64,000 nt of DNA from a virus (IMGVR_UViG_3300031994_000047:1-64000); one strand, 5' to 3'. Positions 86 through 59,508 are shown, numbered from the stretch's first letter. Numbers and translations: made by a program. The notes: generated by a model not told the origin, from the sequence alone.

Positions 86-1180
86 TTACTTAAAAATTCT
101 ATACCAATCTGTATCATTTGGTGTAAGATCATCTCTAAACTGAACGAGTTTGGGATGTCTGATACCTCCAGTGTCCATTATCTGCATACCCGTAATCTCT
201 ATAACTTTTCCAAGATAGGCTCTCCAATTAGACAAAACTTCTTCTGTAATACCACTAAGTGATCCAATTTGTACCATTTGCCCATCTTTTTTCGCGCCGA
301 TAATCAAACTTCCTGCCCAGCCATTAAAATACGCTTTTGTTACTGGTTCAATCGGAAGTCCAGAAGTATGATCCATAAAATGCTCGCCAAGAATTTTTTC
401 TCCTGTCTTTGTATTTTCCCAATACTTCCAGGTCTCAATTTCCTTTCCGTTATATTCACGAGTCGGCGCATTTGCACCAATTATTACAACATCAAGGGTT
501 TCTTTTAATTCCTTCTTTATTTTTATACTTACGCGCGCTGGGGTGCGCTTAAAATAAACCGGAGCATCTTTTCGCATTATTACAACTCCTTCGCGCCCAT
601 TAGCAAGATAAGATTGAAGATTTGACCACAATTCTTCTCCTTCAAAATATTGCGCGAAAGATACAAAATCAGATTTAAAAATAGAAAGAGTTTTTAAATA
701 TTTTACTCGATCTACAAAAGGAACTTTTGTAAGATTTTGTCCATCATATGCCATTACATCAAATATATAAAAATGAAGTGGTGTTTTCTCTTGGCGTGCG
801 ATAGCCTTCTCTTTAAGGCAGCCAAGAATCGAAGTTATGTTCTTACTACCTTCATTTCCAGGAAGATAACATTCAGAAAGCACACAAGTCCCATTTGGAA
901 GCAAATCCATCCATTCTTTTACTTGTGGCGCCCAATCAATTTTGTTCACAATTTCTCCATTAACATTACGACTGCGCGCGATCATAAAACAATTTCCATC
1001 TTCATCTTTCAATAATCTTTCGTAATATCCATCGACTTTCATGCTCCCTATATAGTCGCCGCTAAATATTGCGTCTTTTACTGTTTTCTGTCTTGTTTCA
1101 AGACTTATAGATGATCCAAAAGACCAATACTTCATAGCTTCTGCTTCTTTCCAGTCAAAACCGTTAATATATCCTTCCAT
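86..1180 (-). CDS. ATP-dependent DNA ligase
   Basis: KVDG adenylation motif (KxDG), EGVVIM motif IV, IRHPK C-terminal OB motif; AAGGAAGG RBS; no in-frame TAG. Confidence 0.9.
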   Translation of the reverse strand: MEGYINGFDWKEAEAMKYWSFGSSISLETRQKTVKDAIFSGDYIGSMKVDGYYERLLKDEDGNCFMIARSRNVNGEIVNKIDWAPQVKEWMDLLPNGTCVLSECYLPGNEGSKNITSILGCLKEKAIARQEKTPLHFYIFDVMAYDGQNLTKVPFVDRVKYLKTLSIFKSDFVSFAQYFEGEELWSNLQSYLANGREGVVIMRKDAPVYFKRTPARVSIKIKKELKETLDVVIIGANAPTREYNGKEIETWKYWENTKTGEKILGEHFMDHTSGLPIEPVTKAYFNGWAGSLIIGAKKDGQMVQIGSLSGITEEVLSNWRAYLGKVIEITGMQIMDTGGIRHPKLVQFRDDLTPNDTDWYRIFK

Positions 1181-1211
1181 ACAATTCTACCTTCCTTTTC
1201 TTTCTATATAT

Positions 1212-1292
1212 AGTATATCACAAATTCAAATAATTTTCAAATTCTAAAAGCTAAAATTAAAATTTGAAATTTAGTATAAATTCTGTTATAAT
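1212..1292. promoter_or_regulatory. Divergent sigmaA-like promoters for ligase (-) and replication operon (+)
   Basis: + strand TTGAAA(1264)-17-TATAAT(1287); - strand TTGAAA(1240)-17-TATACT(1217). Confidence 0.75.
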
Positions 1293-1323
1293 ATATATAG
1301 ATTTAAAAGGAGAAATATTATAA

Positions 1324-2253
1324 ATGGAAATATTCATATTATTATCTATTATAGGAATTATAGGAATTATAGTTCTTTTTAAATAGAATAAGGATTTAAA
1401 AGAAAAATATAATTTACTTTCTTAGAACAAAATTCAAGATATGTCAGAAGAAAGTATAAGACTTAGAAATGAAATTCAACATCTTTCAAATGAAATAAAA
1501 GAAAAACAAAATTTTAATTCATCTCTTAAAAAGATAAGAGAAGAAGAATTAGATCGACTTCTAGCCGAACAAAAAGAATTTAAAAAGAATCAAATTGAAG
1601 AAGAAATATGTGAATGGACAGAAAGCGCGCAAGAGGCGGCAACGGCGCAAATAGAACACTTAAAATCAAAAATGTGCCAAGAAATTGAATCTCAAAAAAT
1701 AGACCTCTCAGAATTAAAAACTCTTATAGAAGAATATAAGGCACAAAGAGATGTCATAAATGAAGAAATTCTACGTTCGCGCGCGATGGAATCCCAACAA
1801 GACTTTTATCGAGTCCAATTTGACGCAGAGACTCTCGGTGATATTGAAATACTGAATTCTGTGCGTCCAAGGCTTCAAAAATTTGAACTTTTTAATAAAT
1901 TTTTATATAGTAATTATATATCAAAGCCCACGAAAGAAATGGTAAAACGAGTTCTTGCTGGGCGCAATCCAAGTGGGATCTATAAAGTTACGAATATAGA
2001 CACAAAAGAAATTTATATTGGAAAAAGTGTTACGGTCGCTACAAGGTTTGAGAATCATATAAAAAGTGCGTATGGCTTGGAGGGAGTCGCTGACTCTCAA
2101 TTTTAGCGCGCCCTTAAAAAGTATGGAGTAGATCATTTTACCTGGGAACTTTTAGAAGAAGTTCCGAAGGATAAACTCGGAGAGAAAGAAAAATATTGGA
2201 TACAATTCTATGGAACTAAAGAATATGGATATAATATGAAAGAAGGTGGCTAA
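1324..2253 (+). CDS. GIY-YIG nuclease domain protein with N-terminal TM helix and coiled coil (TAG=Gln)
   Basis: MEIFILLSIIGIIGIIVLF TM segment, E/K/Q-rich coil, GIYKVTN..IYIGKS and YGYNMKEGG motifs; joined through 3 TAGs. Confidence 0.8.
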
Positions 2254-3302
2254 TGGAACTCTCAATATTACAGAAAAACATCATAAGCGCGCCATATGAT
2301 AAGATTGTTGTAAAGTCTTGCGCTGGATCTGGTAAGACTACAATTCTAACCGAAAAAGTTCGCTAGATCTTGCGCGCGGGTGCTGACCCAACGAAGATTG
2401 CTGTTATTACTTTTACGAATTTAGCAGCAGAGACTTTGCGTGATAGACTCGGCGCAGATTATCCTAAAGGACTATTTGTTGGAACAATTCACGCACTTGC
2501 GAATTTGTTGCTTGTGCGCGCAGGCATAAAAACAGAGAAAGTCTTAAAGCAAGAGAGATTTGATGAATTATTTCAAATGGTAGAAGAAAATCCATAGTGC
2601 TTGCGTCATTATGACTGGGTTTTATTAGATGAAGCATAGGACGCAGATGAACACCAATATTTCTTTTTATTTGAAATGTTGAATCCGACTTATTTTTTTG
2701 TAGTAGGAGATCCACGCCAAACAATCTACCAATTTCGCGGTTGTAGTTATCAATATATGCAAACGCTTAGTAGAAAATCAGGCGTCAAACTTTTTTCTCT
2801 TAATGAGAATTATAGAAATGGATCCAATATCCTAAATTTCGCGCGCCGTATTATTGTTAAAACTGGACTTACAGATGATTCAATCCCAATTAGAGAGATT
2901 AGTGGTTTTGTCCACGAAGAGCCACTTTCATATAAATTTATTTTAGATGAGGTAGTTGGTGCATATCCCTGTTACAATAATTGCGCGGTCTTATGTCGGA
3001 CAAATGCCTAGCTCGACGATCTTGCAGCGATTTTTGCTTCTCAAAAGATTCCATATGAATCTTTTAAACAAGGAGATTTGACCGCGCAAGAATTAAAAGA
3101 CAAAATGGCAAATAACACAATAAAACTTTTAACAATTCATTCCTCAAAAGGACTTGAATGGAAAAAAGTTATAGTGGTCGGCGCGCGAATGTATAATGAT
3201 GATGAGTGTAATGTTGCATATGTCGCCGCAACACGCGCGCGAGATAAATTAATTTGGATGCGTCCGCGCGCGAGACAGAAAAAGAAAGATTTTGGATTTT
3301 AA
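2253..3302 (+). CDS. UvrD/Rep-family SF1 helicase (TAG=Gln)
   Basis: AGSGKT, TFTNLAA, DEA(TAG)D=DEAQD, VGDPRQTIY, RTNA(TAG), TIHSSKGLE, YVAATRAR motifs. Confidence 0.92.
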
Positions 3303-3354
3303 AACTTGAAATTTTAAAGTTTTTATGTTATAATAAAAGAAAAAGGAGAATAAA

Positions 3355-3576
3355 ATGCTAGTAAGATTATGCGATCGTTGTGGTCGAGAAACAAAACAAA
3401 ATACTCCATATCTATATTGTTTGGGTGAAAGCGAGAGCTCTTTAAAATCAATTAATGGTGAGTATTATTTTCCTTTATATTTTTGTAATAATTGCATAAA
3501 TGAATTTGAAACAGACTTTCGTCATGACCATCCAATGTTTAACAATAGATTGATAAAGGAAGATGAAATAAAATGA
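3355..3576 (+). CDS. Small Cys-rich (CxxC..CxxC) hypothetical protein
   Basis: RBS AAGGAG; promoter TTGAAA(3306)-17-TATAAT upstream. Confidence 0.7.
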   Translation: MLVRLCDRCGRETKQNTPYLYCLGESESSLKSINGEYYFPLYFCNNCINEFETDFRHDHPMFNNRLIKEDEIK

Positions 3577-5420
3577 TAAAAGATTATGGCATTAATGACA
3601 TAAAATCATTGGATTTCCGCGAAGGTGTACGCACTCGAATACAAATGTATCTTGGGAGTGACGATAACGAAGGAACATACCAAGCATTAAAAGAAATTAT
3701 AAACAACTCAACAGATGAAGCTATTGCTGGTTTCGGGCAAAAGATTGAAATTCAAGTATCAGAAAAAGAAAATGAAATCTCAGTTCGTGACTATGGTCGT
3801 GGTGTCCCATTCGGTATCCGTGAAGATGGAGAAAATGTATTGGTCTCAATTTATTCACGATCTCATACTGGTGGAAAATTTGAAGAAGGCGCATATAAAA
3901 ACTCGTCGGGGCTTAATGGTATTGGAGCCAAATGTGTTTGCCTTAGCTCTAAATATTTTGAAGTATTTTCATATCGAGATAAAAAATATGCTCATGCTAT
4001 TTTTAATAAAGGAGTTCTCGAAGGCTATGATTCAGGTGAATCAAATGCTCCAAACGGAACTTGGGTAAAATTTAGTCCAGATCCTACTGTATTTAAGAAT
4101 GGAGAAATTGGTTATTCATTTGATCGAATTTGCAATGATATTCATGATATATCTTATCTTTACACTGGTATAACATTTAGTATTATAAATATAGACACAG
4201 GAAATAAAACTTCTTATTGCGCTAAAAATGGAATAGTGGATTTCATTAAAGATAATAATAAAAACCCCTTACATAAACATATTATAACAGGTTCCGCGCA
4301 AGATGAAACAGATAAAATTGAAATTGCTTTTCAATGGGGCGATGGGAAAGAATCAGAATATGTTTTTGTTAATGGGTTGAGATGTCCTGAGGGAGGAAGT
4401 CCAATCACTGGTGCAAAGAGTGCCATAACACGAACTTTTAATTCATTATCTGGACAGAAATTTGATGGTGATAGTATTAGAGATGGACTATTTTATGTTA
4501 TAAATTGTTCTGTAGCACAACCATCTTTTGCAAATCAAACAAAATCAAAAATCAATAATGCAAATCTACGCACACTCGCTTCTAATGCTTTTTCAGATGC
4601 TTTAAAACAGATGAAAGCAAAATATGGAGATGAGTTTGATTCTATTGTTGAAATGCTAAAAAAAGTAGCTCGCGCAGAAGCCGCCGCAGAACGCGCGCGC
4701 CAACAAGTTCTTAATAATGAAAAAGAACAAACTCGCGCGCAAAAAGCAAAAATTTTAAATGTAGATAAATTGGCAGACGCGCGTGAATTAGGCGAAAATA
4801 GTACCTTAATTCTTTGCGAGGGCTTATCTGCTGGTGGATCTATGAAAATCGGACGCGACATTAATAAATATGGAATCTTAATGCTTCGTGGAAAGTGTAA
4901 GAACCTATTGAATTGCACGATTGAAGAAGGGCTTCAAAACGAAGAAGTTAAGCTCTTCCAGCAAGCACTTGGAGTTATTTATGGAAAAGTAACAAAAAAT
5001 CTTCGCTATGGAAAAATCGCAATAGCATCCGATTCAGATTTTGACGGGAGCCATATAGGACTCTTAATTCTTGCGATGTCTCAAGTTATTTGTCCTTCAG
5101 TTCTCACAGAAAATCGCCTATTCTGGTTGCGTGCACCCATATATAAGGTAGAAACGAAATCTAAGAAATATTTTTATTATACAGAAGATGAATTTAAATC
5201 ACATCCAAGTGGAACCATTACAAAATACAAAGGCTTGGGACAAATGGATGATGACGACCTAAAAAGTTCAATGTTTAGTCCCGAATGGCAAAAACTTGAG
5301 CCAATTACATTTTCTGAAGAAGGACTCGAACTCCTTATAAACTTAATGGGAAAAAATATTGACTATCGAAAAGAATTTGTGTATAATTATATTGATTTTA
5401 GTAAGTTTGTAATAGAATAA
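3573..5420 (+). CDS. gyrB: Type IIA topoisomerase subunit B (GyrB/ParE-like)
   Basis: EIINNSTDE, DYGRGVP, GLNGIGAK ATPase motifs; EGLSA, LRGK, DSDFDG TOPRIM; YKGLG. Confidence 0.93.
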   Translation: MIKDYGINDIKSLDFREGVRTRIQMYLGSDDNEGTYQALKEIINNSTDEAIAGFGQKIEIQVSEKENEISVRDYGRGVPFGIREDGENVLVSIYSRSHTGGKFEEGAYKNSSGLNGIGAKCVCLSSKYFEVFSYRDKKYAHAIFNKGVLEGYDSGESNAPNGTWVKFSPDPTVFKNGEIGYSFDRICNDIHDISYLYTGITFSIINIDTGNKTSYCAKNGIVDFIKDNNKNPLHKHIITGSAQDETDKIEIAFQWGDGKESEYVFVNGLRCPEGGSPITGAKSAITRTFNSLSGQKFDGDSIRDGLFYVINCSVAQPSFANQTKSKINNANLRTLASNAFSDALKQMKAKYGDEFDSIVEMLKKVARAEAAAERARQQVLNNEKEQTRAQKAKILNVDKLADARELGENSTLILCEGLSAGGSMKIGRDINKYGILMLRGKCKNLLNCTIEEGLQNEEVKLFQQALGVIYGKVTKNLRYGKIAIASDSDFDGSHIGLLILAMSQVICPSVLTENRLFWLRAPIYKVETKSKKYFYYTEDEFKSHPSGTITKYKGLGQMDDDDLKSSMFSPEWQKLEPITFSEEGLELLINLMGKNIDYRKEFVYNYIDFSKFVIE

Positions 5421-5429
5421 GGTGAAGAA

Positions 5430-7769
5430 ATGTCAGATTTAAAACAAATAGTTAGTGAAAACTTCGCGCGCTACGCTGGGAATGTAATACTCGATCGTGC
5501 TATCTGTGATGCGCGCGACCTTTTAAAGCCTTCTGCACGTATGTTAATGTATTCTCAATTACACATAACAAAGAATATTCCATCTAAGCCTTTTGTAAAA
5601 AGCGCGCGAGTCGTTGGTGATTGTCTTGGGCGCTATTATACGCACGGTGATGGAAGCTGTTATGCAACCTATATGAGAATGGCAAAGCCTTTTGCTATGC
5701 GATACCCCCTTGAAGATTGTCAAGGAAATAGTGGAACAATTACAGAAACTGGCGATGAAGCAGCATCCCGTTATACAGAACTTCGCCTAAGCAAACTTGG
5801 CGCGCGCCTTTTTGAGGATATAGAGAAAGAAATCATAACCGAATGGTCAGATAACTTTGATGAAACAGAAACTTATCCAAAAGTTTTAGGATCAAAAGGA
5901 TACTATAATATATGTAATGGATCACAAGGAATCGGTGTGTCTTTAAGTGCGAGCATTCCTCAGTTCAATCTAAAAGATATAAACGAAGCGATGATAAAAC
6001 TTATAAATGATCCTAGTGCAGATATAGATATTTTGCCTGACTTTGCAACGGGCGCGCTATTAATTAATGCCGATCAAGTTCGAGAATCTCTAAAGAATGG
6101 CACTGGCTTCGCTTGTAAATTAAGAAGTGTGGTGGAGTTTGATCCTAAACAAAAAGCCTTTATCGTAAAAGAACTTCCATATGGTGTTTATACAAATACA
6201 ATTTCGGGAGAAATCCAAAAGTTGGTAGAAGCCGATCCCGAATGCGGAGTTGACCACATTAATGATGGATCTGGTAAAACTCCAGATTATGTAATCTATC
6301 TAACAAAGAAAGCCAATCCCGATAAAGTTCTTAAATTGTTGTATAAAGAGACTTCATTACAGTCATTCTTTTCCATTAATATGAATGTGCTGGTTGATGG
6401 CGGGCGCAGACCACAGACTCTTGGATTGCGTGAAATGCTTATCGCGCATATAGATCACGAAAAGATTGTATATCGTCGTGGTTTTGAATTCGATCTTCGC
6501 AAGATTCTCGCGCGCCTTCATATAATCGAAGGCTTGATGAAAGCCTATGATATGATCGATGAAGTCGTGCAGACAATTAAATCTTCTGCTTCAACTGCGG
6601 CGGCTTCTATTGCACTTCAAAAGCTCCTAACAATTGATGAAGTCCAGGCAAAAGCAATTCTCGATCTTAAACTCTCAAAGCTCTCAAAGCTTGATATTTC
6701 AAAATTGCGCGATGAGGCAAACGATCTTGAACAAAAGCGCATACACATAACCCAAATTCTCGAAAGCGAGGAACTATTCAACAATGAACTCATTAAAGGA
6801 TGGAGAGAAGTTGCTGAAACTTTTGGAGACGCTCGGCGCACCAAAATTCTCAATCTATCAGAAGATGCTGATAATGAAACTATTGAAGAAAAGCAACTCT
6901 CAATCTCTTTTAATAATGCCGCGGCATTATGGGCAACTACAACTTCAACGCTATATCGAAATAGTAGAAACTCTGTGGGGTCAAAATTCAAACTCAAAAA
7001 AGGCGAATATATCATAAACAATCTCGTCTGTAAGAATACTGATACGCTTTTGATCTTTACTTCGCGTGGAAACTTCTATCACATTCGCGCGCGAGACATC
7101 AACCTTGATGAATTAGTCTATCTTAGTGCTATATGTCCTATCACAGAAAATGAGAAGATTGTAGCAGTTACAAGTCTCTCAAAAGAAAACCCATATAAAT
7201 ACATATGTTTTATTACAAAGAATGGAATCCTAAAGAAATCTTCAATAGAAGAATATAACTTGTCTCGTAATGTCGGCGCCGCCGCTTTAAAACTTGATGA
7301 AAATGATGAAATAAAATCTGTTCTATTCTTGAATAATGAGAAAATAGGAATTGCAACAAAAAACAGTAACTTTATTATAATAGAAACAGAGGATATTCGT
7401 TCTATCGGAAGGGTCGCGCGCGGAGTTCAGGGCATAAAGTTGAATCCTGGCGATAGTGTTGTTTGCGCCAATCGCCTCGATCCAAATGCGCGAGCCATTA
7501 TATCTGTAACGGAAGACGGGTATATTAAGTCTTCTCCTATAGATGAAATAAAAGTTACAGGGCGCGCAACAAAGGGTCGGCGCATACAAAATACAGATTG
7601 TCTCCAAGATTTTATCTTTGTGTATAACTCAAATGATCTATTGATTACATCAGAAACGTCCCAACTTAGACTACGCCAAAGCGAAGTACCAGAACTCTCG
7701 CTTAGCGCGCAAGGCGTGAAATCTTTAAAATTAAAAGATTCAAAAATTTTAAAATTAGAAACGGTTTAA
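5430..7769 (+). CDS. gyrA: Type IIA topoisomerase subunit A (GyrA/ParC-like)
   Basis: KSARVVGD, HGD, AASRYTE active-site Tyr, C-terminal beta-pinwheel repeats (GRVARGVQGIKL). Confidence 0.93.
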   Translation: MSDLKQIVSENFARYAGNVILDRAICDARDLLKPSARMLMYSQLHITKNIPSKPFVKSARVVGDCLGRYYTHGDGSCYATYMRMAKPFAMRYPLEDCQGNSGTITETGDEAASRYTELRLSKLGARLFEDIEKEIITEWSDNFDETETYPKVLGSKGYYNICNGSQGIGVSLSASIPQFNLKDINEAMIKLINDPSADIDILPDFATGALLINADQVRESLKNGTGFACKLRSVVEFDPKQKAFIVKELPYGVYTNTISGEIQKLVEADPECGVDHINDGSGKTPDYVIYLTKKANPDKVLKLLYKETSLQSFFSINMNVLVDGGRRPQTLGLREMLIAHIDHEKIVYRRGFEFDLRKILARLHIIEGLMKAYDMIDEVVQTIKSSASTAAASIALQKLLTIDEVQAKAILDLKLSKLSKLDISKLRDEANDLEQKRIHITQILESEELFNNELIKGWREVAETFGDARRTKILNLSEDADNETIEEKQLSISFNNAAALWATTTSTLYRNSRNSVGSKFKLKKGEYIINNLVCKNTDTLLIFTSRGNFYHIRARDINLDELVYLSAICPITENEKIVAVTSLSKENPYKYICFITKNGILKKSSIEEYNLSRNVGAAALKLDENDEIKSVLFLNNEKIGIATKNSNFIIIETEDIRSIGRVARGVQGIKLNPGDSVVCANRLDPNARAIISVTEDGYIKSSPIDEIKVTGRATKGRRIQNTDCLQDFIFVYNSNDLLITSETSQLRLRQSEVPELSLSAQGVKSLKLKDSKILKLETV

Positions 7770-7772
7770 AAT

Positions 7773-7801
7773 TTGAAAATATCAGAAATTTCTGATATAA
7801 T
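7773..7801 (+). promoter_or_regulatory. Promoter with perfect 20-bp palindrome in its spacer
   Basis: TTGAAA(7773)-17-TATAAT(7796); atatcagaaatttctgatat at 7779-7798. Confidence 0.7.
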
Positions 7802-7897
7802 ATATTCAGAAAGTTAAGAAAGGCTTTCGACCAAGCCGCCTTGGGAATAAAAACTATAAAAAATAAATTTAAATGCGGCGGACAAAAGGAGATTAGA

Positions 7898-8158
7898 ATG
7901 AAGCTTAAGGAAAAGACTTATGAAGTGTTTATGTATGTGAAGAATCATGGCGGTAAGTGCAAGACCACTGAGATCCAGGCAGGTCTTGGTCTAGAGAAGA
8001 TTGCTAGTGTTACCGGTTGCGTGAACTCTCTTGTGAAGAACGAGCTTGCTATCAGAGAGGATGGCGGCAAGACTGAGGACGGCAAGAAGATCACTTATGT
8101 TGTTCTTACTGAGGCTGGTCAGAACTTTGTTCAGGAAGAGGATACCGACGCTGAGTAA
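7898..8158 (+). CDS. Small winged-helix DNA-binding protein
   Basis: ATG 7898 after AAGGAG; HTH-like pattern and VVLTEAG wing motif (MarR-like). Confidence 0.65.
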   Translation: MKLKEKTYEVFMYVKNHGGKCKTTEIQAGLGLEKIASVTGCVNSLVKNELAIREDGGKTEDGKKITYVVLTEAGQNFVQEEDTDAE

Positions 8159-8168
8159 GTCGAATAAA

Positions 8169-8192
8169 GAGAGGGGAGATTTCTCCCCTCTC
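8169..8192 (+). terminator. Stem-loop after wHTH gene
   Basis: gagaggggag-attt-ctcccctctc. Confidence 0.6.
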
Positions 8193-8233
8193 ATCTAATA
8201 CCCACTTAACACAATACAAAAAGGAGAAATAAA

Positions 8234-9163
8234 ATGTTTAGAAAGGCACAGAATACTGTACGAATTGAAGGAATACTTGCTGAAGTTGATTTGAGAAATG
8301 TATCTTATTCGAATAAGGTGGGTGGCACAACTGAAGCTATCGCGGGCACTATTAAGGTTCTTGTTGACCAACCTATTGATGGAAAACTTATGAATCTTGA
8401 GATTCCTGTCGATGTTTTTGCAATCAAGTATAAGAATAACGGCGATTTGAATCCCGTTTATGAATCCATTGAAAAGTTGAAGACTGATTATGTTTCTATT
8501 GCGGCTTGCGGTAATAAGGAACAGGCAGATAAGATTAGAATCACTAATGCTTCGTTTAGAAAGAACGAATTTTATAACCAAAATGGCGAGTTGAAGTCAA
8601 CTCCTCGTGTAAATGCTAGTTTCTTCTCAAAGGTAACTGGTGAGTTTAATCCCGAAGCAACTTTCACAGTTGAACTTTTTGTTTCTAGCATTGCGCGCGA
8701 AGTCGATGCAGATGGAGTTGAGCTTGATCCCGCTCGTTTGAAGGTGCAGGCTGTTGTTCCTCTCTACACAAGAGAAGACGCAAATGCGCTTAACATTGAT
8801 TTGTTTGACTTTGTCGCTACCAATCCTAATGTTATTAATGCTATTGAATCTCATTGGGAAGCTGGAAAGGCTTATAAGGCAAACGGTAAGCTTTGCTTCA
8901 CTTCTAAGACTGAGAAGATCACTGATGCAGTTGACTTTGGTGAGTCAAGAGAACGCGTAAGAACTATTAGTGTTCATGATATAATGATTACTGGTGGTTC
9001 TGAAACTCCTCTTGATGAGGAAGAGTCTTGGACTATTGATGAGATTAAAGCTGGTGTTGCCGCGCGCAAGGCTAGACTCGAAGCTCTAAAGAATAAGTCT
9101 AAGAAAACAGCAGAGACCTCTACTGCGGCAGTCGATAAGAAGAAAGCCGATCTCGGATTTTAA
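8234..9163 (+). CDS. Probable ssDNA-binding (OB-fold) protein
   Basis: NTVRIEGIL SSB-like N-terminus, DLGF C-terminal tail, position next to recombination ATPase. Confidence 0.5.
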   Translation: MFRKAQNTVRIEGILAEVDLRNVSYSNKVGGTTEAIAGTIKVLVDQPIDGKLMNLEIPVDVFAIKYKNNGDLNPVYESIEKLKTDYVSIAACGNKEQADKIRITNASFRKNEFYNQNGELKSTPRVNASFFSKVTGEFNPEATFTVELFVSSIAREVDADGVELDPARLKVQAVVPLYTREDANALNIDLFDFVATNPNVINAIESHWEAGKAYKANGKLCFTSKTEKITDAVDFGESRERVRTISVHDIMITGGSETPLDEEESWTIDEIKAGVAARKARLEALKNKSKKTAETSTAAVDKKKADLGF

Positions 9164-9176
9164 GAGGTGAGAGCTA

Positions 9177-10169
9177 ATGGCAGTAGATATCTTTAACATC
9201 CAAGAAAACACCATTAGCCGCGATCTGAAAGGAAGATTTCTTTGTATCTATGGTGCAGAGAAAGTCGGGAAGTCTACATTCGGTGCTAGACTTCCCCGTC
9301 CTCTTTTTTGTAATTTCGAGGTTGGAACCAACTATCTCCCCGTTAAACCTGTAAATATTGATAAGTGGTCAACCTTTAAACAAGTATTACGCCAACTTGC
9401 TGATCCGCGCGCGAAAGAAATGTACGACACAGTTGTAATAGATACTGTATCGGAAGCTTGGTCAGCTTGTGAGAAATTCATTTGTACTCAAAATGGTGTA
9501 CAAAAGCTTGGAGACATTCCTTGGGGTCAAGGCTATAGTGGATGTAAAACAGAGTTTGAAAGTGCTTTAAGATCAATTACAATGTTAGGATTTGGGTTAT
9601 GTTGTATCTGTCACGCAGAAAAGAAGAATATCCCTGGTCCTAATGACACAGTAATTGAAACAGTTCAACCAGCAATGCCTTCGCGCGCGGCAGATATTGT
9701 TAATCGTATGGTCGATATAATTGCATATATAGATCAACGCTTTGATGAAAATGGTGAAAGCGTAAGAAGATTTATTACTAGAAGATCTCCAAGAGTTCTT
9801 GCTGGTAGTAGACTTCCATATCTTGATCCAGTAATTCCTTTCTCTTATGAAGATTTAATCGCCGCAATCGGGCGCGCGATAGATAAACAAGAAGAGATAG
9901 ATAAAATTAAAGTTGTCGATCACAAAGAGACGACACCAGTTGAATCTCTTTCCTTTACTGCTGTTCGTAACGAAGCGCGCGAACTATGGACAAAACTTGT
10001 TGGCGAAGGCGAAAACGCCGACGAAGAAATGGCAAAACGAATTATGAAACGAATTGAAATGATTTTCGGACGACAAATGAAACTCTCAGAGATTACAGAG
10101 GATTAGACCGATTTGTTTAATCTCGTAGTTCTCGAAATGAAAGATCTCTTAGCGGAAAAGGCAGTTTAA
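9177..10169 (+). CDS. AAA_24/Sak4-like phage recombination ATPase (TAG=Gln)
   Basis: GAEKVGKS Walker A, VVIDT Walker B, WGQGY; extends through TAG 10104 to TAA 10169. Confidence 0.8.
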
Positions 10170-48934: not shown

Positions 48935-48937
48935 TTA

Positions 48938-49414: not shown

Positions 49415-49442
49415 TATACTCCTTTAACTCCTTTTTAAAGAA

Positions 49443-49462: not shown

Positions 49463-49493
49463 CTCAAATTTATAATATATTAGATCTTATAGA

Positions 49494-50558: not shown

Positions 50559-50577
50559 TATTATACCCTCCTTTCAA

Positions 50578-51114
50578 TTAAGCATTATAAACTTGGAACT
50601 TCACGCCATACTGACCATCAGGCATTGTAGTACCCTTAACTGCGCGCAGAACAACGCCAACAGTAGGAACAGTAGTAGAAACAGCGATAGAACCATCAGA
50701 ACTTGTAGTACCATAAACAGTACCACTCTCAACCGCCGACTTCAAAGCAGTCTCAGTAGCAAACTCAGTGGTATTATAAGAAATGCAGTTAGTAGTGAAC
50801 TTATCACCAACGGAAAGATAACCAAGACGAGGATAGAAGTCATTTGTTCCAAGAGCAAAATTCTTCAAACCAGGAGTTCTTTCATCATAAATGTGTTCTG
50901 AACTATAATTAATAGCAACAGGAAGAGAGGTGTCAACTGCAAACTTCACAACTCTATTCACATTATCAACAGCAAGAATCATACCATTTTCGGCAACCTT
51001 GCCATTAAAATCAGTGGTGTCTAGGGCACATTGAGCTTCAATACGACCATCTCTACGGAAGGCGCAGTTATTGATCTCAAGCTGACCATAGCCATCGATA
51101 ACTAATCTAGCCAT
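50578..51114 (-). CDS. Capsid decoration/stabilising protein
   Basis: Start MARLVIDGYGQLE after GGAGGA; between scaffold and MCP; no TAG. Confidence 0.6.
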   Translation of the reverse strand: MARLVIDGYGQLEINNCAFRRDGRIEAQCALDTTDFNGKVAENGMILAVDNVNRVVKFAVDTSLPVAINYSSEHIYDERTPGLKNFALGTNDFYPRLGYLSVGDKFTTNCISYNTTEFATETALKSAVESGTVYGTTSSDGSIAVSTTVPTVGVVLRAVKGTTMPDGQYGVKFQVYNA

Positions 51115-51134
51115 TTTATATTCCTCCAAATATA

Positions 51135-52502
51135 TTATTTCTTGTATTTATCTAAAAAGGCTTCAATTCCAGATTTTGGCTGCTCCTTTGGAAGCACACC
51201 GCCCGCATTAGAATTTTTGAAGAAAGCAAAGTTTGTTTTCTTTAATTCATAAGCAAGTCTCATATCAAGTTCTTCAGCAGTATAAGAATCTAAGTTAGAA
51301 GAATAAGTATCTAGGACTTCCTCAGACAACTTATCATTATACTCTGCAATTACAGCAAGTTTATTCTGTTTCTCAATATCAGACTTATATGTTCTTAAAG
51401 ATTCAACTTCAGTCTTCAAACCTTCAAGTTCTGCGGTTTGCGCAGTATAAGTTGTATTAAGAGCGTCAAAATCATTTTGAATTTTTTCCTTATCCATTTC
51501 TAAAGTAGAAATCTAATTTGATTTCTCGTCTAATTTGGTGACATAATCTGCATTTTGAGTGTAAATTTCTTCAACCTTTTCAATCTTTTCATTTACAAGC
51601 TCAAAATTACCACCATTAAGTTCACGCAAACGATTTAAAACTGCGCGCTCTGTTTCAGTCACATCTTCAATAAAACAAACTTCTTCTTTTGTAATTTGAA
51701 GACTATTGGTTTCATCGTTCTTCTAATAATAAGCTCTACGATGCGCGCCAGTCTCTGTATCCATTACAATTGCATACTCATCATAAACCGCGCAAATGCA
51801 AGAAGTGATAATCCAACCACCCTCTTCAGAGTACAAAGGGTTCAGTAAGGTCCAAAGAGCATCAAACTTCTCATCATCAGATAATTTAAAATTAAGCTTT
51901 GGCATTGGCTCCTCCTTCTATAAACTAAATTGTTTTATTCTTTCTATTGTATCTTCAATTTGTTTCTAAAGGGTGAAGAATGAAGCCCCTTCAAAACAAG
52001 GCTCTACTTTATCTCCTAAAACCTAAAGTCCTAAGAAGGAGCCACTCTCAAAAACTGCATATTTCACACCTTGAATTATTTCAAAGTGGTACTTTAAAGT
52101 AGGCGGAAAAAGTTCCATTGAAAGTCCTTTTCCAGTTATGGTATTTGCTTCTGGATAAAGTGCAGTATAAAGCAAAACGTCCGCGCAAGCATATATTCTT
52201 TCCACCCCATCTTCATCTAAATGAGGTTCCCACGCAAAGTTTAAATCTGCAGGAACGATACCATAAATGCGCCCCTCTGTTCTTTTTTTTCCATGATCGG
52301 TAAAATCATCAGTATCAAAAATTCCCTTTACTGGCACATAAGGAAGTGAATCAATAAGGCTCTATGCAAAATCGTCAGTTATAAAAGTACCATTACGATT
52401 CGCGCCCTTATAAAAAATTCTTGCGCGCGCTCTAGATAAAGTTTCATTTACCTAAGTTAATTCGCTATAAATCACTATAGGAAAATCTAAACTTATAGCC
52501 AC
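51135..52502 (-). CDS. Prohead protease-scaffold protein (GTG start; TAG=Gln)
   Basis: NRNG, SMEL, GL(Q)VLGDKVEPCFEGA protease motifs; coiled-coil C-terminus; one frame. Confidence 0.75.
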
Positions 52503-52505
52503 TTA

Positions 52506-53975
52506 TCATTCACCTCCCTAATTATCAATTGCTTGTTGATTTTGAATCGTTTTGTCCGATTTATCCTCAAGCTTTTTCTCTGGTGCGCCAGGCTCTCCAG
52601 ACTATGTATAAGAAGAAGTAAGTGGGCGCATTTTATCAGCAAGTTGAAGCACATCATTTTCTAGGTCTTTAATATCAGTAAATTGCTTCTAAGTAAGACC
52701 CGCCGCAACTGCTGGCACTAAGAAACTGTAACCGCTTGAAGCAAGCTTCAATGCAGTTGTAATATACTCATCTTGATTATAATAACTTACGGGAAGAATT
52801 TCAAAGCTAAAGGAAATATTAGAATTACTAAACAAAGAATTCAAAATATTCGTAAAGAAATGTGCATATTTATTTCCAAGTATCATCATAAGAGATAAAT
52901 CATTTTTTATTGAAATTGGAATTGCTTGCGAGCCAGTCGGCGCAAATATTTCAGAACTTACACCAGCATTAGCATAAACATTTTGAAAGATTTGTTTAAT
53001 TGCATTTGCAACATTTTCGCCCGAAGTTTTAGATACGACCGCATCAACATCAGTATAAGTGGTTAAAACTGAAAGATTTTTATTTCCACTTAACATTTTT
53101 ACTGAACCTTCATGCATTACTTTCGCTTCTTCTGGTTCAAAAAGTAATTGTCCATCTGTTAAATGTGGCACTTTTTGTACTATAATCTTTTTAATTTCTT
53201 CTAATTGGCGCTCAAGATCTGTATCAATTGCCTAATCATATTTTAAAATATCTGGTATAATAGGTATAAGAATTGGCAAACTATCATCAAAGAAAGTAAA
53301 ACAAACTCCCACATCTGCTGATACCATACACCAAGGATTTGATACTTTTCCTTTAGAATAACGTCTATAATGATTTGCGATCTCTTTAGGGTAAGTTTTT
53401 AATGCGGTTTCTCTTAGATATTCATCAACAATAGAATCAAAATATGTTACCTTAAACTCTAAAATATCATTTCCATAAATATCTTTGTAAATAGAACGGC
53501 AATATTCTGTTGGCAAATCAAAAAGAACAAAACTATCTTTTGTTTTCTCTTGAATAATTCCATAATACGCGCCATAAATCAAAACTCGTAATGAAACACG
53601 AGTTAAGACTTCGCGCAAATGTAAATTTTCGATATAATCTAAAGAGGTATAATACTTCTTTAATATATTTTGGGTGGAGAGTTTACTATTGGTTCTTATA
53701 TGAGGAATCAATAACCCGCTATATGTTAAAAGAGAAGCATAATACATTAAGATACGGCGATAAATTGCATTTCGATCATAGAAGTATCTTGAGAGATATT
53801 GTTGAGAAATTGCCTCACCAGAATTTATTATACGTTCTATTTCTTCAAGAGAGTAATCATATCGAGGAGAAAAATATTGAGAGTAATATGTTTCTTTCCA
53901 GGACGCGGCATTTTTTGCTACGAGTTCGCGCGAAATGTTAGAGAAACAACTTAGATCTCTTTTCACATCTTTCAT
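52506..53975 (-). CDS. Portal protein (TAG=Gln)
   Basis: 489 aa directly after terminase; PLTSSYT(Q)SGEPGAP C-terminus. Confidence 0.75.
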
Positions 53976-53977
53976 TT

Positions 53978-56883
53978 TTATCCTCCTGTAAAGAATACTA
54001 ATTGTCTATTTGAAGATTGTTGGCGTTTATACCTTTTTAGATTTTCTTCTTCGAGTTCTTTTATGCGCCAAAGCCCATATTCAAAAGCAGAAAATTTATC
54101 TTTAGGAAAACGAGAATTTATTTTCTCTAAGACAATATCCAAACCGCTTCTTTTAAGTCGAAGATTCGCCATTTCTTCAAAAAGACGAGTAGTCATTTCA
54201 TGCGGCATTAATCGTTGAGTTCGTTGCTCGAAACTCATTTTTTGACCTATTTTTGTAGCGAGTAATCTCGCGCGCGCCTCTTGTTCTGTAATAAGAAATC
54301 TCACCATGCCGCTATTTACTCTTGTGTAAGCATTACTATGGATTTTTGAGTTAAGTGGTCCATTTGCTTTTAAAGAGTATAAGATTTGAGGCGCTTCTTT
54401 TGGCTAAACTTTTTGGTAATCTTTACTATTAAAGAAACCAAGTGGAGCAAGTTCCTATCCTTTTTCATTGAATTGGGTTTGAATCATTTCATCTGCAAGA
54501 CCTACCAGTTACCTTCCGCGCGAGTCGTTAAGTCGCGCGCGTTCATATGAACTGCTATATATTTCTATATAGTTGAGACTATATCTTTATCTTTTATAAG
54601 ATATCCCCTATTTCGACTCACTTGAGCCTACGGTATAAAACCTAGTCGTTGAACATTATTTAAGATTGGAAGTAACTTCGCGCCACATTCTACCATTTTT
54701 AATCTTACCGATTATATCTGGATGTACACCATATTCATTAGATAAATCTATATTCCGTTCACCATTATTTCCACGGATATAAATTTCTTTTACCTAATTT
54801 GGTGTTAGCTTTGCAGCGCCATTCACTTTTGCTCGTAATCCATTTTCCATGGCGTGATGAATATTTTCTTCACAAGTTACCCATTCAAGGTTATATAAAC
54901 AATTATTTGTTTTGTCTCCATCAATATGATTAACTTGAAGTTGATCCATGTTTGGGACTGGACAAAAATTTTCCATTATCAGACGATGCACTGAATAACG
55001 ATGAACCTTCTTAGGCGGTAAATCAGTTGAACATAATGCAACCTTCATATATCCATCCTTATCTTTGGTTTGAGAAAGAAATTTATTGCTTCTTTCACTC
55101 CAAATTCTGCCATCATCTGTTACATAATAATTGAATTTTAATGGATACTTACAAATAGTAATTAGTTTCTTTTCCATATATATACACCTCCAATAAAAGT
55201 GTTTTTATCTTAAATCTTTGCTGCTGATTGTCCATAAGGAGTTTCCAGCAATTAAAGGGATTTTACTTGAGCATTTAGTCTACCCAAGCCGTTGCAATCC
55301 ATCACGACTTCTCGCGGATTAAATCTCTCAATCAATGTTTTCAAATCTGCTGCTTGGCGCGCGAAAGTTTTAGTTTCTGCTTGGCGTCCAATAACATATA
55401 AATTAACGAGCGTAGCATAGTATTTTCCATTTCGCACTATAACTTTAAAGATACAAACAACAGATTGGTCGTGTAATCTACCTACCAATACTTTCTATAT
55501 GACGCGTTAAGTCATATACGTTCTCTTATGAACTGCTATATGTTTCCATATAGATAAGACTATATCTTTATCTCATAGAGATATTTTCCATTTCGATCTA
55601 CTTAGATCTACTTCCTCTCGGAATAGTCGTTGAGCCAGTTTATACTGGCGCGGATTGGCTATTTTTTGTAGTACTTAGGTTTACACCATATACCATCTTG
55701 ATATTTGTTTCTACTTTCGTAACGTCATAATCTGAGGAAGATTATTTTAGTATATCAAGCTTTAAGCGTTCCCCGCATTAAAGAAAATTTACGCACACCG
55801 ATTACTCGGTGTGGGGACATAAATTTTATCCACCGAAAATAAGTAAAAATAATCGCTATTCTATAAACTTTTTTGCTGCCATTCTGGATTAACAAGTTTT
55901 CGATATTTTCCAATTTTATTAAAATCAAACCAAGATTCTTTACTTCCCCCATCCCAAATTCCTAAATACTCTGCCGCAAAAGTCTTTTCATCATAAGAAG
56001 GAGAAAGCTTTAAGTTCTATACATACTTTTTATCAATAAGTCCGTGCAAAACTGGAATACGATAATCTAGCCCCATACAGAAACTAGTTTTAGGACTTAT
56101 AATTGATTGTTCAAGTACATCTATAAGCGCCGCATATGCGTAAGAAGATTTCTATCCCGCAGATGTAGCATATATAACTTGTGTATTAATAGACTCGTTT
56201 TGGTTTATAAGTCCATTTTCCATTCTTCTAGACACGTTCATCTAAGGAAGAATGATTTCTGCTATTGCGTCACCGTCCTAATCGCGCGCTTCATCTATGA
56301 GCGTTGCGTGCGTTCTAATTCCTCTGTCGGAATCAAGCGCACCGACCACTGATAATTTACTTCCATTTTTGAAGTATAACTCAGCATAATCTTTTGAAAA
56401 GTTCGCGCGCGGCTCTCCACCATAAACTTCTAACTCATCTTTTAATAGAGGCCAAATGCGCCATATCTCTTGAACTTTTTGTTTTGTTATCTTTGAAGCC
56501 TATGACTTGTTCGGCGCAACGATAGAGCCAACATGATGTGGCAAGAACATACACTAAAGATACTTCGCAAGTATTGCAAGAAATGTTTTTGATGTAGCAC
56601 GCGCCGCAGTAATGTACACATTCGTATATCTCATGCAGGCGCGCAAGAATAATCTCTAATAAGGAAAAAGCTTAAAATTTGATTTTACTGGAGTAATGTG
56701 ATCCAAATATATATCAGGATACACAGTATATAGACTCCACATATTCGTTAAGAAATCTTCGTGCTATTCGAGCCAAGTGGGAGTAAGTATAACTCCTTTT
56801 TCTACCTCAACACCGTCGCGCAACACACGGTCGCGCGCATTAAAAGTCATTATAGGCTCGCGCAGTTTAATAGGTTCTGACAT
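53978..56883 (-). CDS. Terminase large subunit, spliced: exons 56883-55828, 55485-55282, 54505-53978 (595 aa, TAG=Gln)
   Basis: LFPY(Q)R, AARATSKT Walker A, LIDEA Walker B, SVD|VGR and DCNGLG|VG nuclease motifs restored in frame by splicing, KDKFSA. Confidence 0.88.
54506..55281 (-). mobile_element. Group I intron 2 in terL carrying HNH homing endonuclease
   Basis: P1 CUUGGGU/GCUCAAG with U.G at splice site; AAUCAGCAG, AACGACUAG, AAGAUAUAGUC; terminal G. Confidence 0.88.
54656..55177 (-). CDS. Intron-encoded HNH homing endonuclease (TAG=Gln at 54794)
   Basis: VHRL, QVNHIDGDKTNN..NLEWVT..EN..HA, KLTPN(Q)VKEI DNA-binding tail. Confidence 0.88.
55486..55827 (-). mobile_element. Group I intron 1 in terL (no ORF)
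   Basis: 5' exon ends in U, intron ends in G; P1 GGAU/GUCC; AACGACUA and AAGAUAUAGUC core elements. Confidence 0.85.
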
Positions 56884-57893
56884 TATACACCCCCTATTGC
56901 TCCGCCGCCATCAAACTCTTCGTTTTCAAATTGCTCGAAACCTTCGTTATCGTATTTATCTTCATCAAATTCAAATTGAATGCCATATATATCAGAGCTT
57001 TCTGTTTGAACGCCTTCTTTTGAATTTTCTTCTTGAATTGCTTTGAGTCGGCGCGTAATCTCATCACCAATACCACCTTCGTTAATATAGAGTCGTTGGT
57101 TATAGGATTGGATGTTTTTAATTGTCTCGTCTATAACGTCGCGAGTCGCGCCATCGTAGAATTGGTTTTCGCGCCCGCGCTTTTCGAGCCAAACCGCAAG
57201 TTCTCCGAAGGAACTAAAATCATTGTCGTCTTTTGAGTTCTTTGGATTAAATTCTGCGGTTTTTACGAGTTTGTCATAAGAGGATAAGAATTTATCGACA
57301 TCTTTGCTACCCGCGCGAATTTGTGAGTCAATTTCAAGTGAGAGTTTGCAAATCTTTTGAGCTTGGTCGATTTGAAGTGCGCCGTTTATGTTTTGTGTTG
57401 CGACTAAGCCTTTGTATAGGTCTTCGAGATAATCGAGTTGTTCAGGTGAGTAGTTTGCGCCCCATTTCTTTTGAAGATCTTTAACTCGTTTTTCATCGAG
57501 AAGTGGAATCTCATACTCTATTTGTGAAGCCTCTTTGAGCTTTTGATATTGATGAAAGTAATCGATCCACCCAAGAGATTTGTATTCGTCTCCGCTAAAG
57601 GTGCGCGCGTATGTAGCCCAAGTTTGCGCTGGCTATGTAAGTTCAGATATGCGTTCCCACTCTTTTACAATGAAAGGAATATCTGCCCACTAACAGACTT
57701 TGTCTATTGCTTCCCAAGAAAATTCATTTTCCCGCAAATAGTATGTAACACAAGAATTACAGAGAGGAATATGTCCATCTTTGTAGAAGTAGGAGTGAGT
57801 GGGCGCGAACTCTTCGATGTCAAAGGAGCGACCGCATTGGGCGCACGTTTTAAGGTGGGACTCACGCTCTGGAATTTTAGGGATTATGGGCAT
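56883..57893 (-). CDS. Zn-finger protein upstream of terL, possible terminase small subunit (TAG=Gln)
   Basis: CAQC..CNSC, 336 aa, TAATG overlap with terL. Confidence 0.55.
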
Positions 57894-58207
57894 TAGATTC
57901 CTACCTCCGATGCCTCGCGCGCCGTTACTGGCGAAGAAGAATCAGAAGAAGAAGAATCAGTAGAAGGTTCTATTACTTCTTTTTGTTCTATCTTCGCGCG
58001 ATTAGCATCTCCTAGAATTTGGACGAGTTCTTTTCTTCTTTTCTTACTTTGCTTCTCAAAAGAGTCCAACATAAGACCCAAAAGTACCCAAAAATCTGGA
58101 GTTTCGTCTTTCTAGAACTTAATGCCTAAAATGCGCGCGACCCCAAGAAAAATTTCGGGCTCTTTTATGCGCGCGACCTCTGTCGCGAATTTATCTTTTA
58201 ATTTCAT
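57893..58207 (-). CDS. Hypothetical protein (TAG=Gln)
   Basis: AAGGAG RBS, 104 aa, Ser-rich tail. Confidence 0.6.
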
Positions 58208-58215
58208 TTTGTGTT

Positions 58216-59508
58216 TTATCTCCTTTTTAATTTCTCACATTCCTTACAGCGAGGACTAAGTCCGTCACTAGATCTAGCCCTTCTCACAAAGAAGCGTGGA
58301 TCCTTGAGATAGACGCGGCCGCAGTCTTTGCAAACCTTAAAGTTTTCGGGGAAGGCGCAGTTTTCTAAGAGTTCTCGGTGTAATGCTGCCGCGCCCGCTA
58401 TTTTCGGAATGATTTTCTTATAGAAAAGTACAGAGATGTAATTATCTGTATAGAGTTTGGAGTATTTTTGATTGATTTCATCTCGTATTAAGAGATTTGG
58501 GGCGCCCGCACTTTTGCGCATTAGAATGTGAGATTCTATGGGGCTGAGTCGCGCGCCCGTCACGTAGAAGTCGAATGTGTCGAGGAAGGGGCGCAATTCA
58601 GAGTAGAGTGATTGGGGGAGAGTTGATTCTGCGCGGAAGCGTGGAATAAGGGGTAGGAGGGCGCGCAAATGGGATTCGTTACGGAAGTCGAAGGAGAATT
58701 TAGTGGGGGTTGTGGGCGCCCATAAGCGCGATGAGACCGCGCGCAATACTGGCTCAGAGAGTGTAGTGGGAAGTGGGAACTATGGAGCCCAGAGAGGACT
58801 TGTGGGGTCTGAGGGTTTAGTGGGTTTTAGTCCGAATGGTAGGACGCATATATCTGCGCCGAAGATTGGGGGATCTTCGGTTGGAGTGGGTTCGAGTTTG
58901 CGCGGGAAGATTGTGGGCGCAAAAGAGTCTTTGTAGTAGAATTGCGAGCTTCGGAGTTGGACCAATTGGTGACGAAGCTTAAGGTATGAGTAGGGGGTTA
59001 GAGACTTTGCGCGGGCTTCAAGGGCGGGGCGCGCAGAAGGGTCGATACGAGCTAGGAGTTCTTCGCGAGGGGTGGCGCCCGCATAAGTCGTTAGAATGTA
59101 GTCGGTTTCGTCAATTGTGTGCCAAAGGGACTCGAGTTCGCGCAAATGGGTCGGATTTGCGAGAGCTTGCGCGCGAGATCGTGAGAATTTTGTGGGTGGA
59201 ATACGAGGGCGCGGTGCGTCTAGTGGTTGGAGATCAATTTCGTTAAAAGCGGGATCTTCTAGGAGGGATTCGAGCGATTCTACGGGTTTTGAATCCCAAG
59301 TTTTATGGCGGGTTTCAAGATCAAGACCTTCTTGGCGCCCATTCTAGCCTTCGGAGTTTTTGCCCCAAAGGATATAGTTTGATAGGGTTTCGAGTTCAGT
59401 CTCGGAAAATTTTAAACGAGAGTGTTGCGCGAGAAAGTTTTGAACATATTGTGTGCGCTCTTCTCGGGTTTGGAGTGAGAAATTTAGGTTTAAGCGATTT
59501 TGGGACAT
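58216..59508 (-). CDS. Hypothetical protein with C-terminal CxxC..CxxC, possible DNA-binding regulator (TAG=Gln)
   Basis: Fragments 59344, 58780, 58216 share one frame; first gene after leftward promoter. Confidence 0.6.

Follow-up and report, generated by a model that had tools for sequence, protein, structure and literature searches.

The hexamers GCGCGC and CGCGCG are strewn over the opening 64 kb of a virus contig that measures 94,303 bp (IMGVR_UViG_3300031994_000047:1-64000; this stretch is the window below, and the contig is designated G000). This excess is G000's local form of a cooperative clustering of G and C that extends throughout a phage clade, in which islands of ~6-12 bp lie in AT-rich DNA. 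On the plus strand of the window, which has 36.4% GC, GCGCGC occurs 128 times and CGCGCG 111 times where composition predicts ~2.3 of each, and the two are the most over-represented hexamers under a zero-order model (z 116 and z 101, respectively). GCGCGC stands 47-fold over composition, alternating G/C runs of 6-8 nt are 8-48x above a first-order model, and the whole genome holds 206 alternating runs. All 11 of the GCGCGC starts listed for the first 3.3 kb in a preliminary description of the window are present, together with a site at 2287 that it had missed. The same description placed the greatest density at 56-59.5 kb; that region is indeed dense (13-14 per 2 kb), but it does not exceed 2-6 kb (15-16) or 26-28 kb (14). 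Comparisons were made with three relatives that are 97-100% complete (G002-G004), with clade loci (L-numbers), and with two cultured control phages, SPbeta and Enterococcus phage VRE9_4. A literature search for GCGCGC enrichment in phages gave nothing relevant.

Shuffling synonymous codons while keeping every protein and the codon usage of each gene, the control on which the preliminary description had beforehand been made to stand or fall, leaves most of the signal unexplained. The coding sequences contain 125 copies of GCGCGC compared to 25.1 +/- 4.9 after shuffling (5.0x, z 20.4), and 106 copies of CGCGCG compared to 21.3 (z 19.3), while an excess of 12-13x is still seen relative to permutations of codon order. 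Since a five-fold excess outlives the synonymous shuffles, the signal is real. Both hexamers are spread about evenly over the three reading frames (42/48/35 for GCGCGC and 38/29/39 for CGCGCG) and are also found in intergenic DNA. The expectation that they shape peptide choice was also borne out, given that the dipeptides AR and RA reach 1.84x and 1.72x their amino-acid expectation in G000, as against 1.06-1.45 in the relatives and 0.65-1.15 in the cultured controls; the signal nevertheless acts at the level of DNA, beyond codon and dipeptide use. In an alignment of DnaE polymerases, amino acids of the G000 protein are altered so as to form runs, and both CGCGCG and AGAGCA are used to encode one and the same Arg-Ala pair. 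Moreover, half of the places in the replication genes at which the protein sequence permits GCGCGC or CGCGCG are occupied, compared to ~7% expected from codon frequencies.

The hexamer is not, however, a unit in its own right. Given its constituent pentamers, GCGCGC shows no excess (observed/expected ratio, O/E, 0.91-0.96), and the enrichment accumulates stepwise from GCG/CGC (1.72) through tetramers (1.27-1.30) to pentamers (1.15). Judged as a highly iterated palindrome (HIP), the class of single hyper-abundant (15-300x) palindromic words to which cyanobacterial HIP1 belongs, it falls short, as it does not exceed its pentamers and G/C-only words at large are enriched according to their step composition. 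The lengths of G/C-only runs in G000 are heavy-tailed, with 348 runs of at least 7 nt compared to 87 expected from a geometric law and with runs of 2-4 nt depleted. Perfect alternation is seen in about one-fifth to one-quarter of islands of 5-7 nt, compared to 2-6% by chance, and many other islands consist of a GCGC core terminated by GG or CC.

Four-fold degenerate sites reveal the cooperativity directly. The probability that such a site is G or C is 0.18-0.25 when its G/C neighbors are isolated, 0.29-0.41 when two G/C residues are present on the 5' side only, and, with two on each side, 0.48 or 0.66 depending on whether alternation is impossible or possible. This probability grows with the count of G/C neighbors, with an influence reaching ~5 nt per side, and the effect is equal in the relatives, while SPbeta and VRE9_4 show none of it. 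Over 1.8 Mb of clade DNA, the hazard that a G/C run is extended starts at 0.36 and levels off at 0.55-0.59 for lengths of 6-12, whereas it is flat near 0.3 in SPbeta plus VRE9_4. A rise followed by a return to baseline, as for a threshold or footprint size, was hinted at in G000 alone and gave way to this plateau in the larger sample.

The ranking of words within the islands follows the strength of base stacking. Using nearest-neighbor values reportedly given by SantaLucia in 1998 (GC -2.24, CG -2.17, GG/CC -1.84 kcal/mol), the stacking energies of all G/C-only 4- to 7-mers correlate with log O/E across the clade (Spearman 0.92-0.98) and, when words that include GGCC or CCGG are left out, in G000 (0.88-0.98); in SPbeta plus VRE9_4 the correlation is absent or negative. 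A three-parameter additive step model has an R2 of 0.74-0.94, with near-identical weights in G000 and in the rest of the clade, GpC being favored x3-3.9 and CpG x2-2.7 relative to GG/CC. Because the order GpC > CpG > GG/CC is also the stacking order, alternating words rank highest. Stacking energy is, however, a function of step counts among G/C-only words, so that this test reveals an additive preference for alternating steps rather than thermodynamic causation.

Which words fill the islands depends on what else the genome avoids. The preliminary description remarked that phages usually deplete palindromes, and this holds for G000, in which GGCC (9 sites in 94 kb, O/E 0.08), ACGT (0.15) and CATG (0.20) are strongly avoided, and GTAC (0.35) and CCGG (0.39) are depleted. 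When the islands are refilled by a first-order chain that keeps the pattern of G/C versus A/T, 144 +/- 12 copies of GCGCGC are predicted against 188 observed, and the same refill predicts 118 GGCC and 105 CCGG sites against 9 and 45. With GGCC nearly absent and CCGG scarce, the islands of G000 are thus channeled into GCGCGC and CGCGCG. In G002-G004, GGCC is not avoided (1.1-1.2) and other palindromes are, for example GATC (0.14) and ACGT (0.03) in G004; these differences imply different host restriction landscapes. The tail of long islands is present in all 85 clade loci (52-79% DnaE identity) at a ratio of 1.3-5.9, and the top word is usually GCGCG/CGCGC. Lineages that avoid GCGC or CGCG (L087, L088, L068, L096/99, L060/61 and L133) keep their islands and spell them GCGGC/GCCGC; L087, for instance, has no GCGC in 21.5 kb and yet a tail of 3.4. 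Restriction avoidance therefore edits the word set, so that lineages display different signature words for one underlying cause.

Alternating runs are also limited in length. The longest in G000 is 9 nt, below the Z-forming length of ~10-12 bp or more. Against lineage-specific nulls in 1.9 Mb of clade DNA, alternating 9-mers number 11 compared to 49 expected, and runs of at least 10 nt number 1 compared to 27, while 7-mers are in excess. Long slippery or Z-prone (GC)n is therefore removed, in line with the suppression described by Huang and Mrazek (PMC4060949). Slippage or a microsatellite-like origin was rejected, other dinucleotide repeats having no enrichment. The shorter runs have preferences of their own. 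In G000 the C-start form CGCGCGCG exceeds the G-start form GCGCGCGC by 21:8 at length 8, whereas G-start runs lead 70:29 at length 6; in the pooled relatives these C-/G-start and G-/C-start comparisons give 20:21, which is even, and 163:59, respectively. GCGC and GCGCGC outnumber CGCG and CGCGCG by 2.4:1. Across the genome and the clade, T is preferred over A at the 5' flank of islands by 1.6-2.6:1, with A over T at the 3' flank by symmetry, and ACGCGC is especially rare, C-start runs being preceded by A 18 times and by T 104 times. A search for a longer consensus around the runs gave only T at -1 and A at +1, with flanks at background within ~4 nt, and no 10.5-bp helical phasing of islands was seen.

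The density of islands is more constant than their placement. Run spacing is Poisson (coefficient of variation 1.1), and runs of odd length (5 and 7 nt) have no consistent orientation bias along the genome. At opportunities shared between six genome pairs, a comparison of limited power, 49 co-occupied positions were observed compared to 32-38 expected, an excess on a par with the surplus identity still seen at ordinary 4-fold codons (1.06-1.23x). Contigs from four other samples are ~93-95% identical, and the 40 differences listed, out of ~1,600, include none in runs, compared to ~0.9 expected. We infer that islands are replenished in such a way that density, not position, is kept. The tail is the same in DNA outside open reading frames (ORFs) as in coding sequence (3.97 and 4.0), and cooperativity at 4-fold sites is 0.55-0.58 in replication genes versus 0.53-0.55 in structural genes, which have fewer Ala, Arg, Gly and Pro contexts. 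Consistent with this, the absence of alternating runs from a 3.6-kb stretch of tail genes (Table 1) results from few amino-acid opportunities (6.0 vs 10.5 per kb) and not from a weaker drive. The preliminary description had raised the possibility of a discrete, positively selected hexamer site; graded abundance, barely conserved positions, Poisson spacing and the lack of an orientation bias or extended motif all tell against it.

The trait belongs to the phage lineage. SPbeta and VRE9_4, which share the replication module of G000, lack GCGCGC altogether in 50 kb apiece and show CGCG at an O/E of 0.06-0.12 and no cooperativity. Chromosomal DNA from five bins of metagenome-assembled genomes (MAGs) that carry clade contigs, none of them a proven host, has a tail of 0-0.76 with an O/E of 0-2.1 for GCGCGC and 0.1-1.2 for GCGC. 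In the Erysipelotrichaceae MAG G006, chromosomal loci L146 and L148 give 0.11 for GCGC and 0.05 for CGCG, as compared to 7.2 and 5.7 for the phage contig L110 in the same bin; should phage and chromosome truly be paired as host and virus, something must shield the phage DNA from GCGC-type restriction. Clade contigs are binned in MAGs that range from Erysipelotrichaceae to Methanobrevibacter (L111), Bacteroidales (L114) and Treponema (L128), and this spread over phyla, including an archaeon, points to mis-binning of these AT-rich phage contigs within public MAG sets and makes the bins unreliable as host evidence. A host search by single-protein scan of genome contigs gave no match. Several genes accompany the trait. 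GyrA homologues are encoded by 27 of the 46 trait-bearing loci versus 0 of the 8 trait-free loci, and are absent from SPbeta and VRE9_4; matches to gyrases of cultured phages are only 30-33% identical and mostly unannotated fragments. Homologues of an unannotated gene of 380 amino acids (aa), the start of which overlaps the DnaE stop, were detected in 35 of the 46 trait-bearing loci and in 0 of the 8 trait-free ones, and a fusion containing a dUTPase domain is also found in trait-bearing genomes. Phylogeny confounds all three associations, since the loci without the trait are also those furthest removed. The AlphaFold2 (AF2) model of the 380-aa protein (predicted local distance difference test score, pLDDT, 87) has as its best neighbors the B12-domain/radical-SAM enzymes MgmA, RimO and MiaB (Z 10-11), although the protein has no conserved cysteines; its fold rules out a beta-clamp.

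We also examined the methylases, given that the preliminary description had proposed the hexamer as the target of a phage C5-cytosine methyltransferase encoded at 16033. This 234-aa protein is plausibly a miniature C5-methyltransferase on the basis of its motifs and predicted fold. HPPC (motif IV) and IENPVG (motif VI) are present and invariant in 24 homologues, whereas the N-terminal VLVACEESQ lacks the glycine loop sought as S-adenosylmethionine (AdoMet) motif I (FxGxG), and searches against PF00145 and NCBIfam gave no match. Foldseek comparison of its AF2 model (pLDDT 76) returns DNMT3A/B and M.HaeIII with E values of 2e-5 to 1.5e-3 and template modeling (TM) scores of only 0.36-0.49. The family has more than 8000 homologues in public metagenomes, none with a Pfam domain and almost none named. 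A second, CcrM-like methylase of the N6/N4 type is rare in the sampled clade, with a homologue detected in two loci besides G000. Importantly for the proposed link, G002-G004 encode no homologue of the 16033 protein and no PF00145 or PF01555 domain, and GCGCGC nonetheless has an O/E of 12-38 in these near-complete genomes; loci with and without the homologue have similar densities. The 16033 methylase is not required for the trait, and the proposal that the hexamer is its target finds no support.

A pattern that is uniform, graded, without fixed positions and in need of no reader is best fitted by a lineage-specific substitution bias. The reading we tentatively favor, while stopping just short of calling it probable, is therefore that a bias peculiar to the phage lineage and dependent on duplex stability drives the islands; an unusual mutational bias was the last of the options in the preliminary description, and it is the one toward which the evidence leans. 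Under such a bias, decay from G/C to A/T would be slower, or fixation of A/T to G/C changes more frequent, where stacking is strong. Islands would be constantly lost and refilled with no site-specific reader, and purifying selection would strip restriction sites together with long slippery or Z-prone (GC)n. Several points weigh against this explanation. Equilibrium patterns alone supply the direction of mutation and its dependence on context, any process favoring alternation would yield the same stacking correlation, and the fitted step weights are 1.5-2x above what a plain Boltzmann treatment of the stacking differences gives. A generic physical effect would be expected in SPbeta and the Enterococcus phage as well, and its absence there means that a lineage-specific factor must be postulated. 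In addition, the 5'-T/3'-A flank preference and the lead of CGCGCGCG over GCGCGCGC are not predicted by the model, and a bias that fills half of the synonymous opportunities and alters amino acids has an outcome equally expected of selection.

That last point leads to the main rival, which we consider possible if somewhat unlikely, namely that selection maintains dispersed, maximally stable G/C-only duplexes as GC clamps every few hundred bp, with any word serving unless host restriction forbids it. Possible users of such clamps include the phage gyrase or replisome, limited melting of supercoiled AT-rich DNA, nucleation of primers or annealing, or a phage protein that reads stability. A ranking by stacking stability is what stability selection should produce; occupancy of 50% of opportunities at the expense of amino acids, interchangeable words between lineages, and a trait confined to the phage lineage and not the candidate host bins also agree with it, as does the presence in trait-bearing genomes of a gyrase and of a DnaE-adjacent gene that the cultured relatives lack. 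The gene associations are phylogenetically confounded, however, and spacing without regularity, positions that are not conserved, an extension hazard that plateaus instead of dropping to baseline past a threshold length, and the absence of the phasing or extended architecture expected of wrapped gyrase sites are all awkward for selected clamps. A more ambitious form of this idea, which we regard as improbable, is that the islands form a stability-defined, sequence-degenerate functional code, in which clade machinery (gyrase, replisome, or the radical-SAM-like, DnaE-coupled protein acting as a DNA modifier) reads or writes clamps that mark or mechanically organize phage versus host DNA and each lineage picks the words that restriction tolerates. 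It is less likely still that the system is HIP-like, with a cytosine methyltransferase (the 16033 protein, a host enzyme, or a phage enzyme missed by profiles) marking GCGC/CGCG-type sites that repair of a methyl-directed or very-short-patch-like kind, or selection on methylation density, then ratchets up. Elhai, who proposed a repair/methylation ratchet for cyanobacterial HIPs, ties alternate HIPs to cognate methylases (PMC4390886), and G000, with its two methylases, has an alternating-run density 2-4x that of its relatives and encodes GIY-YIG nuclease-domain and UvrD-like proteins; the contrast in GCGC between chromosome and phage contig in G006, if it is the true host, would call for protection of phage DNA. 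On the other hand, the complete relatives keep the trait with no recognized cytosine methylase, which leaves room for host-encoded or unrecognized enzymes, and density is indifferent to the 16033 homologue. Many non-palindromic G/C words share in the trait, motif positions are not conserved, and the products that deamination should leave show no specific depletion (O/E of 0.96 for GTGC and 1.01 for CGTG); a Vsr-type signature, for which GTGC/GCAC and CGTG/CACG should be scarce, was rejected on the same counts.

Two further explanations fare worse. In Firmicutes, Chi sites are short, rich in GC and built on a GCG core, such as AGCGG in B. subtilis and GCGCGTG in L. lactis, and the islands might accordingly derive from a Chi-like word of the host AddAB or RecBCD enzyme, or mirror host oligonucleotide usage or repair. 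Chi words are known to accumulate in phages that lack recombination modules (PMC12315714). G000 has Sak4, RecJ and RuvC genes of its own, however, and the chromosomal DNA in the five bins carrying clade contigs, themselves not proven hosts, is not enriched; odd-length runs are without the orientation bias of a single asymmetric word, and many words are enriched in proportion to their stacking strength. We therefore consider an origin in the host very unlikely and largely refuted. Z-DNA-prone CG runs were another suggestion of the preliminary description. Selection of the runs because they form Z-DNA or cruciforms, perhaps to serve as supercoil sinks, is in our estimation the least credible of all. 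Alternating G/C is the classic Z-forming sequence and the phage encodes a gyrase, but the purging of alternating stretches of at least 9-10 nt is the reverse of what selection for a Z-forming length would bring about and argues against it, non-alternating G/C islands share in the enrichment, and alternating G-C runs of at least 6 nt are generally suppressed in prokaryotes (PMC4060949).

G000 originates from sheep-gut and rumen metagenomes. CheckV estimates the 94,303-bp contig to be 76% complete, and a 104-kb version is present in another assembly. ORF coverage is 63% with TAG as a stop and 94% with TAG as sense, as befits genetic code 15 (TAG = Gln), and 52 TAG codons lie inside the single 2200-aa tape-measure ORF; TAG is thus a sense codon genome-wide (1324-59532 in the window, and beyond), probably for Gln. 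ARAGORN found no suppressor with a CUA anticodon among 13 tRNA genes at 88.5-94.2 kb, and as the contig is only ~76% complete such a gene may sit in the missing part. About 13 of the 85 clade loci look TAG-recoded, and the standard code applies in the complete relatives G002-G004. G000 is a siphovirus, and its tail-tube protein bears a dockerin, which hints at binding to cohesin-bearing surfaces. Its replication module (Sak4, DnaB, primase, RecJ and a YorL-type DnaE) is syntenic with those of Bacillus phage SPbeta and Enterococcus phage VRE9_4; its DnaE shares 75% identity with the closest full-length one, and no relative obtained lies between 90 and 99% identity. Further genes encode GyrB, GyrA (8.6 hexamer hits per kb), a UvrD-like helicase, a GIY-YIG domain protein, a ligase, NrdDG, ThyX and a dUTPase-domain protein, and the recombination genes are of Sak4 (AAA_24), RecJ-like and RuvC-like type. 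The GIY-YIG domain protein has 4-5 paralogues in each complete relative (G002, G003 and G004) and none in SPbeta or VRE9_4, and looks like a homing-endonuclease-type family. From 58000 to 64000, and on to ~76 kb, G+C is higher (0.40-0.46), with many small ORFs on both strands and fewer long ones.

Table 1. Features of the window, with positions counted from its first nucleotide.
Feature	Position	Strand	Remarks
Field of compact G/C-only islands	1..64000	.	133 alternating G/C runs of 6-9 nt
GIY-YIG domain protein	1324-2253		in the window
Example of CGCGCGCG, the favored 8-nt form	1778..1785	.	GCGCGC with C and G flanks
UvrD-like protein	2253-3302		13.3 hexamer hits per kb
Phage-encoded gyrase	3573..7769	+	GyrB 3573-5420; GyrA with C-terminal beta-pinwheel 5430-7769
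N6/N4 DNA methyltransferase (CcrM-like)	15133..15855	+	PF01555, E 1e-19
Miniature C5-cytosine-methyltransferase-like gene	16033..16737	+	234 aa with TAG=Q; phrog_757 'DNA methyltransferase', E 7e-64
DnaE-type (YorL-like) replicative polymerase	17759..21757	+	clade marker
Unannotated 380-aa gene	21757..22899	+	start overlaps DnaE stop; no Pfam or PHROG match
ThyX	26109..26870	+	densest long gene, 15.8 hexamer hits per kb
Tail-gene stretch, 3.6 kb	28703..32352	-	zero alternating runs of at least 6 nt
Tail-tube paralogue with type I dockerin domain	29074-30420	-	PF00404, E 5e-16
Sigma-factor-like gene	58216-59532		inside the higher-G+C stretch

These observations mean that the word set of a large clade of uncultured phages obeys a simple quantitative physical rule, combining cooperativity with step weights ranked by stacking. 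If the cause is mutational, this would be an unusually strong context-dependent substitution regime that alters proteins, and in gut and rumen phages it could mislead k-mer-based host prediction, binning and motif discovery; should the cause be selective, the islands would represent a novel type of dispersed signal in genomes, one that stability defines. The clade supplies many independent genomes for separating selection from bias with population data.

To our knowledge, HIP1-like hyper-abundant words have had no accepted explanation in ~30 years and are usually treated as specific sites with a reader. Very-short-patch repair beside Dcm sites creates oligonucleotide skews in E. coli, but it needs a methylase plus Vsr and concerns one site family with an effect of modest size. 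It resembles the present case in that a repair or mutation bias raises specific short GC-containing words genome-wide with no reader, and differs in that T-containing derivatives are not depleted in G000. Huang and Mrazek (2014, PMC4060949) found that alternating G-C runs of at least 6 and 8 nt are in general suppressed in the genomes of prokaryotes; the clade likewise purges alternating runs of at least 9-10 nt, but its runs of 6-8 nt are enriched 8-48x, against the general trend. In the Chi accumulation reported by Zheng et al. (2025, PMC12315714) for phages lacking recombination modules, a short GC-rich word is similarly enriched in phage genomes via synonymous choices. Chi is, however, one oriented, non-palindromic word that is enriched in the host too, whereas the clade has many words, no orientation bias and unenriched candidate host DNA, and G000 carries Sak4, RecJ and RuvC of its own. 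The closest likeness is to HIP1 (GCGATCGC) and the alternate highly iterated palindromes of cyanobacteria (Elhai 2015, PMC4390886; Xu, Lawrence and Durand 2018, PMC5861425). In both cases GC-rich palindromic words stand tens of times above expectation in every frame and in spacers, beyond codon usage and overriding codon choice, the word varies by lineage, and the cause is contested between biased repair and selection. The G000 clade nevertheless has a graded, stacking-ranked family of G/C-only words where HIP is one word. Its positions are barely conserved, whereas those of HIP1 are conserved between diverged genomes (PMC5861425), most of its members are without a cognate methylase, and its carrier is a phage clade whose candidate hosts are without the trait. 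The 10-90-kb periodicity of HIP lies beyond the reach of a 94-kb genome, in which short-range spacing is Poisson. HIP1 with its alternates and the accumulation of Chi in phages are thus the nearest published analogues, and to them is added here the description in terms of cooperative islands, a stacking rank, a restriction filter and a length ceiling, along with negative results for methylase, host and position.

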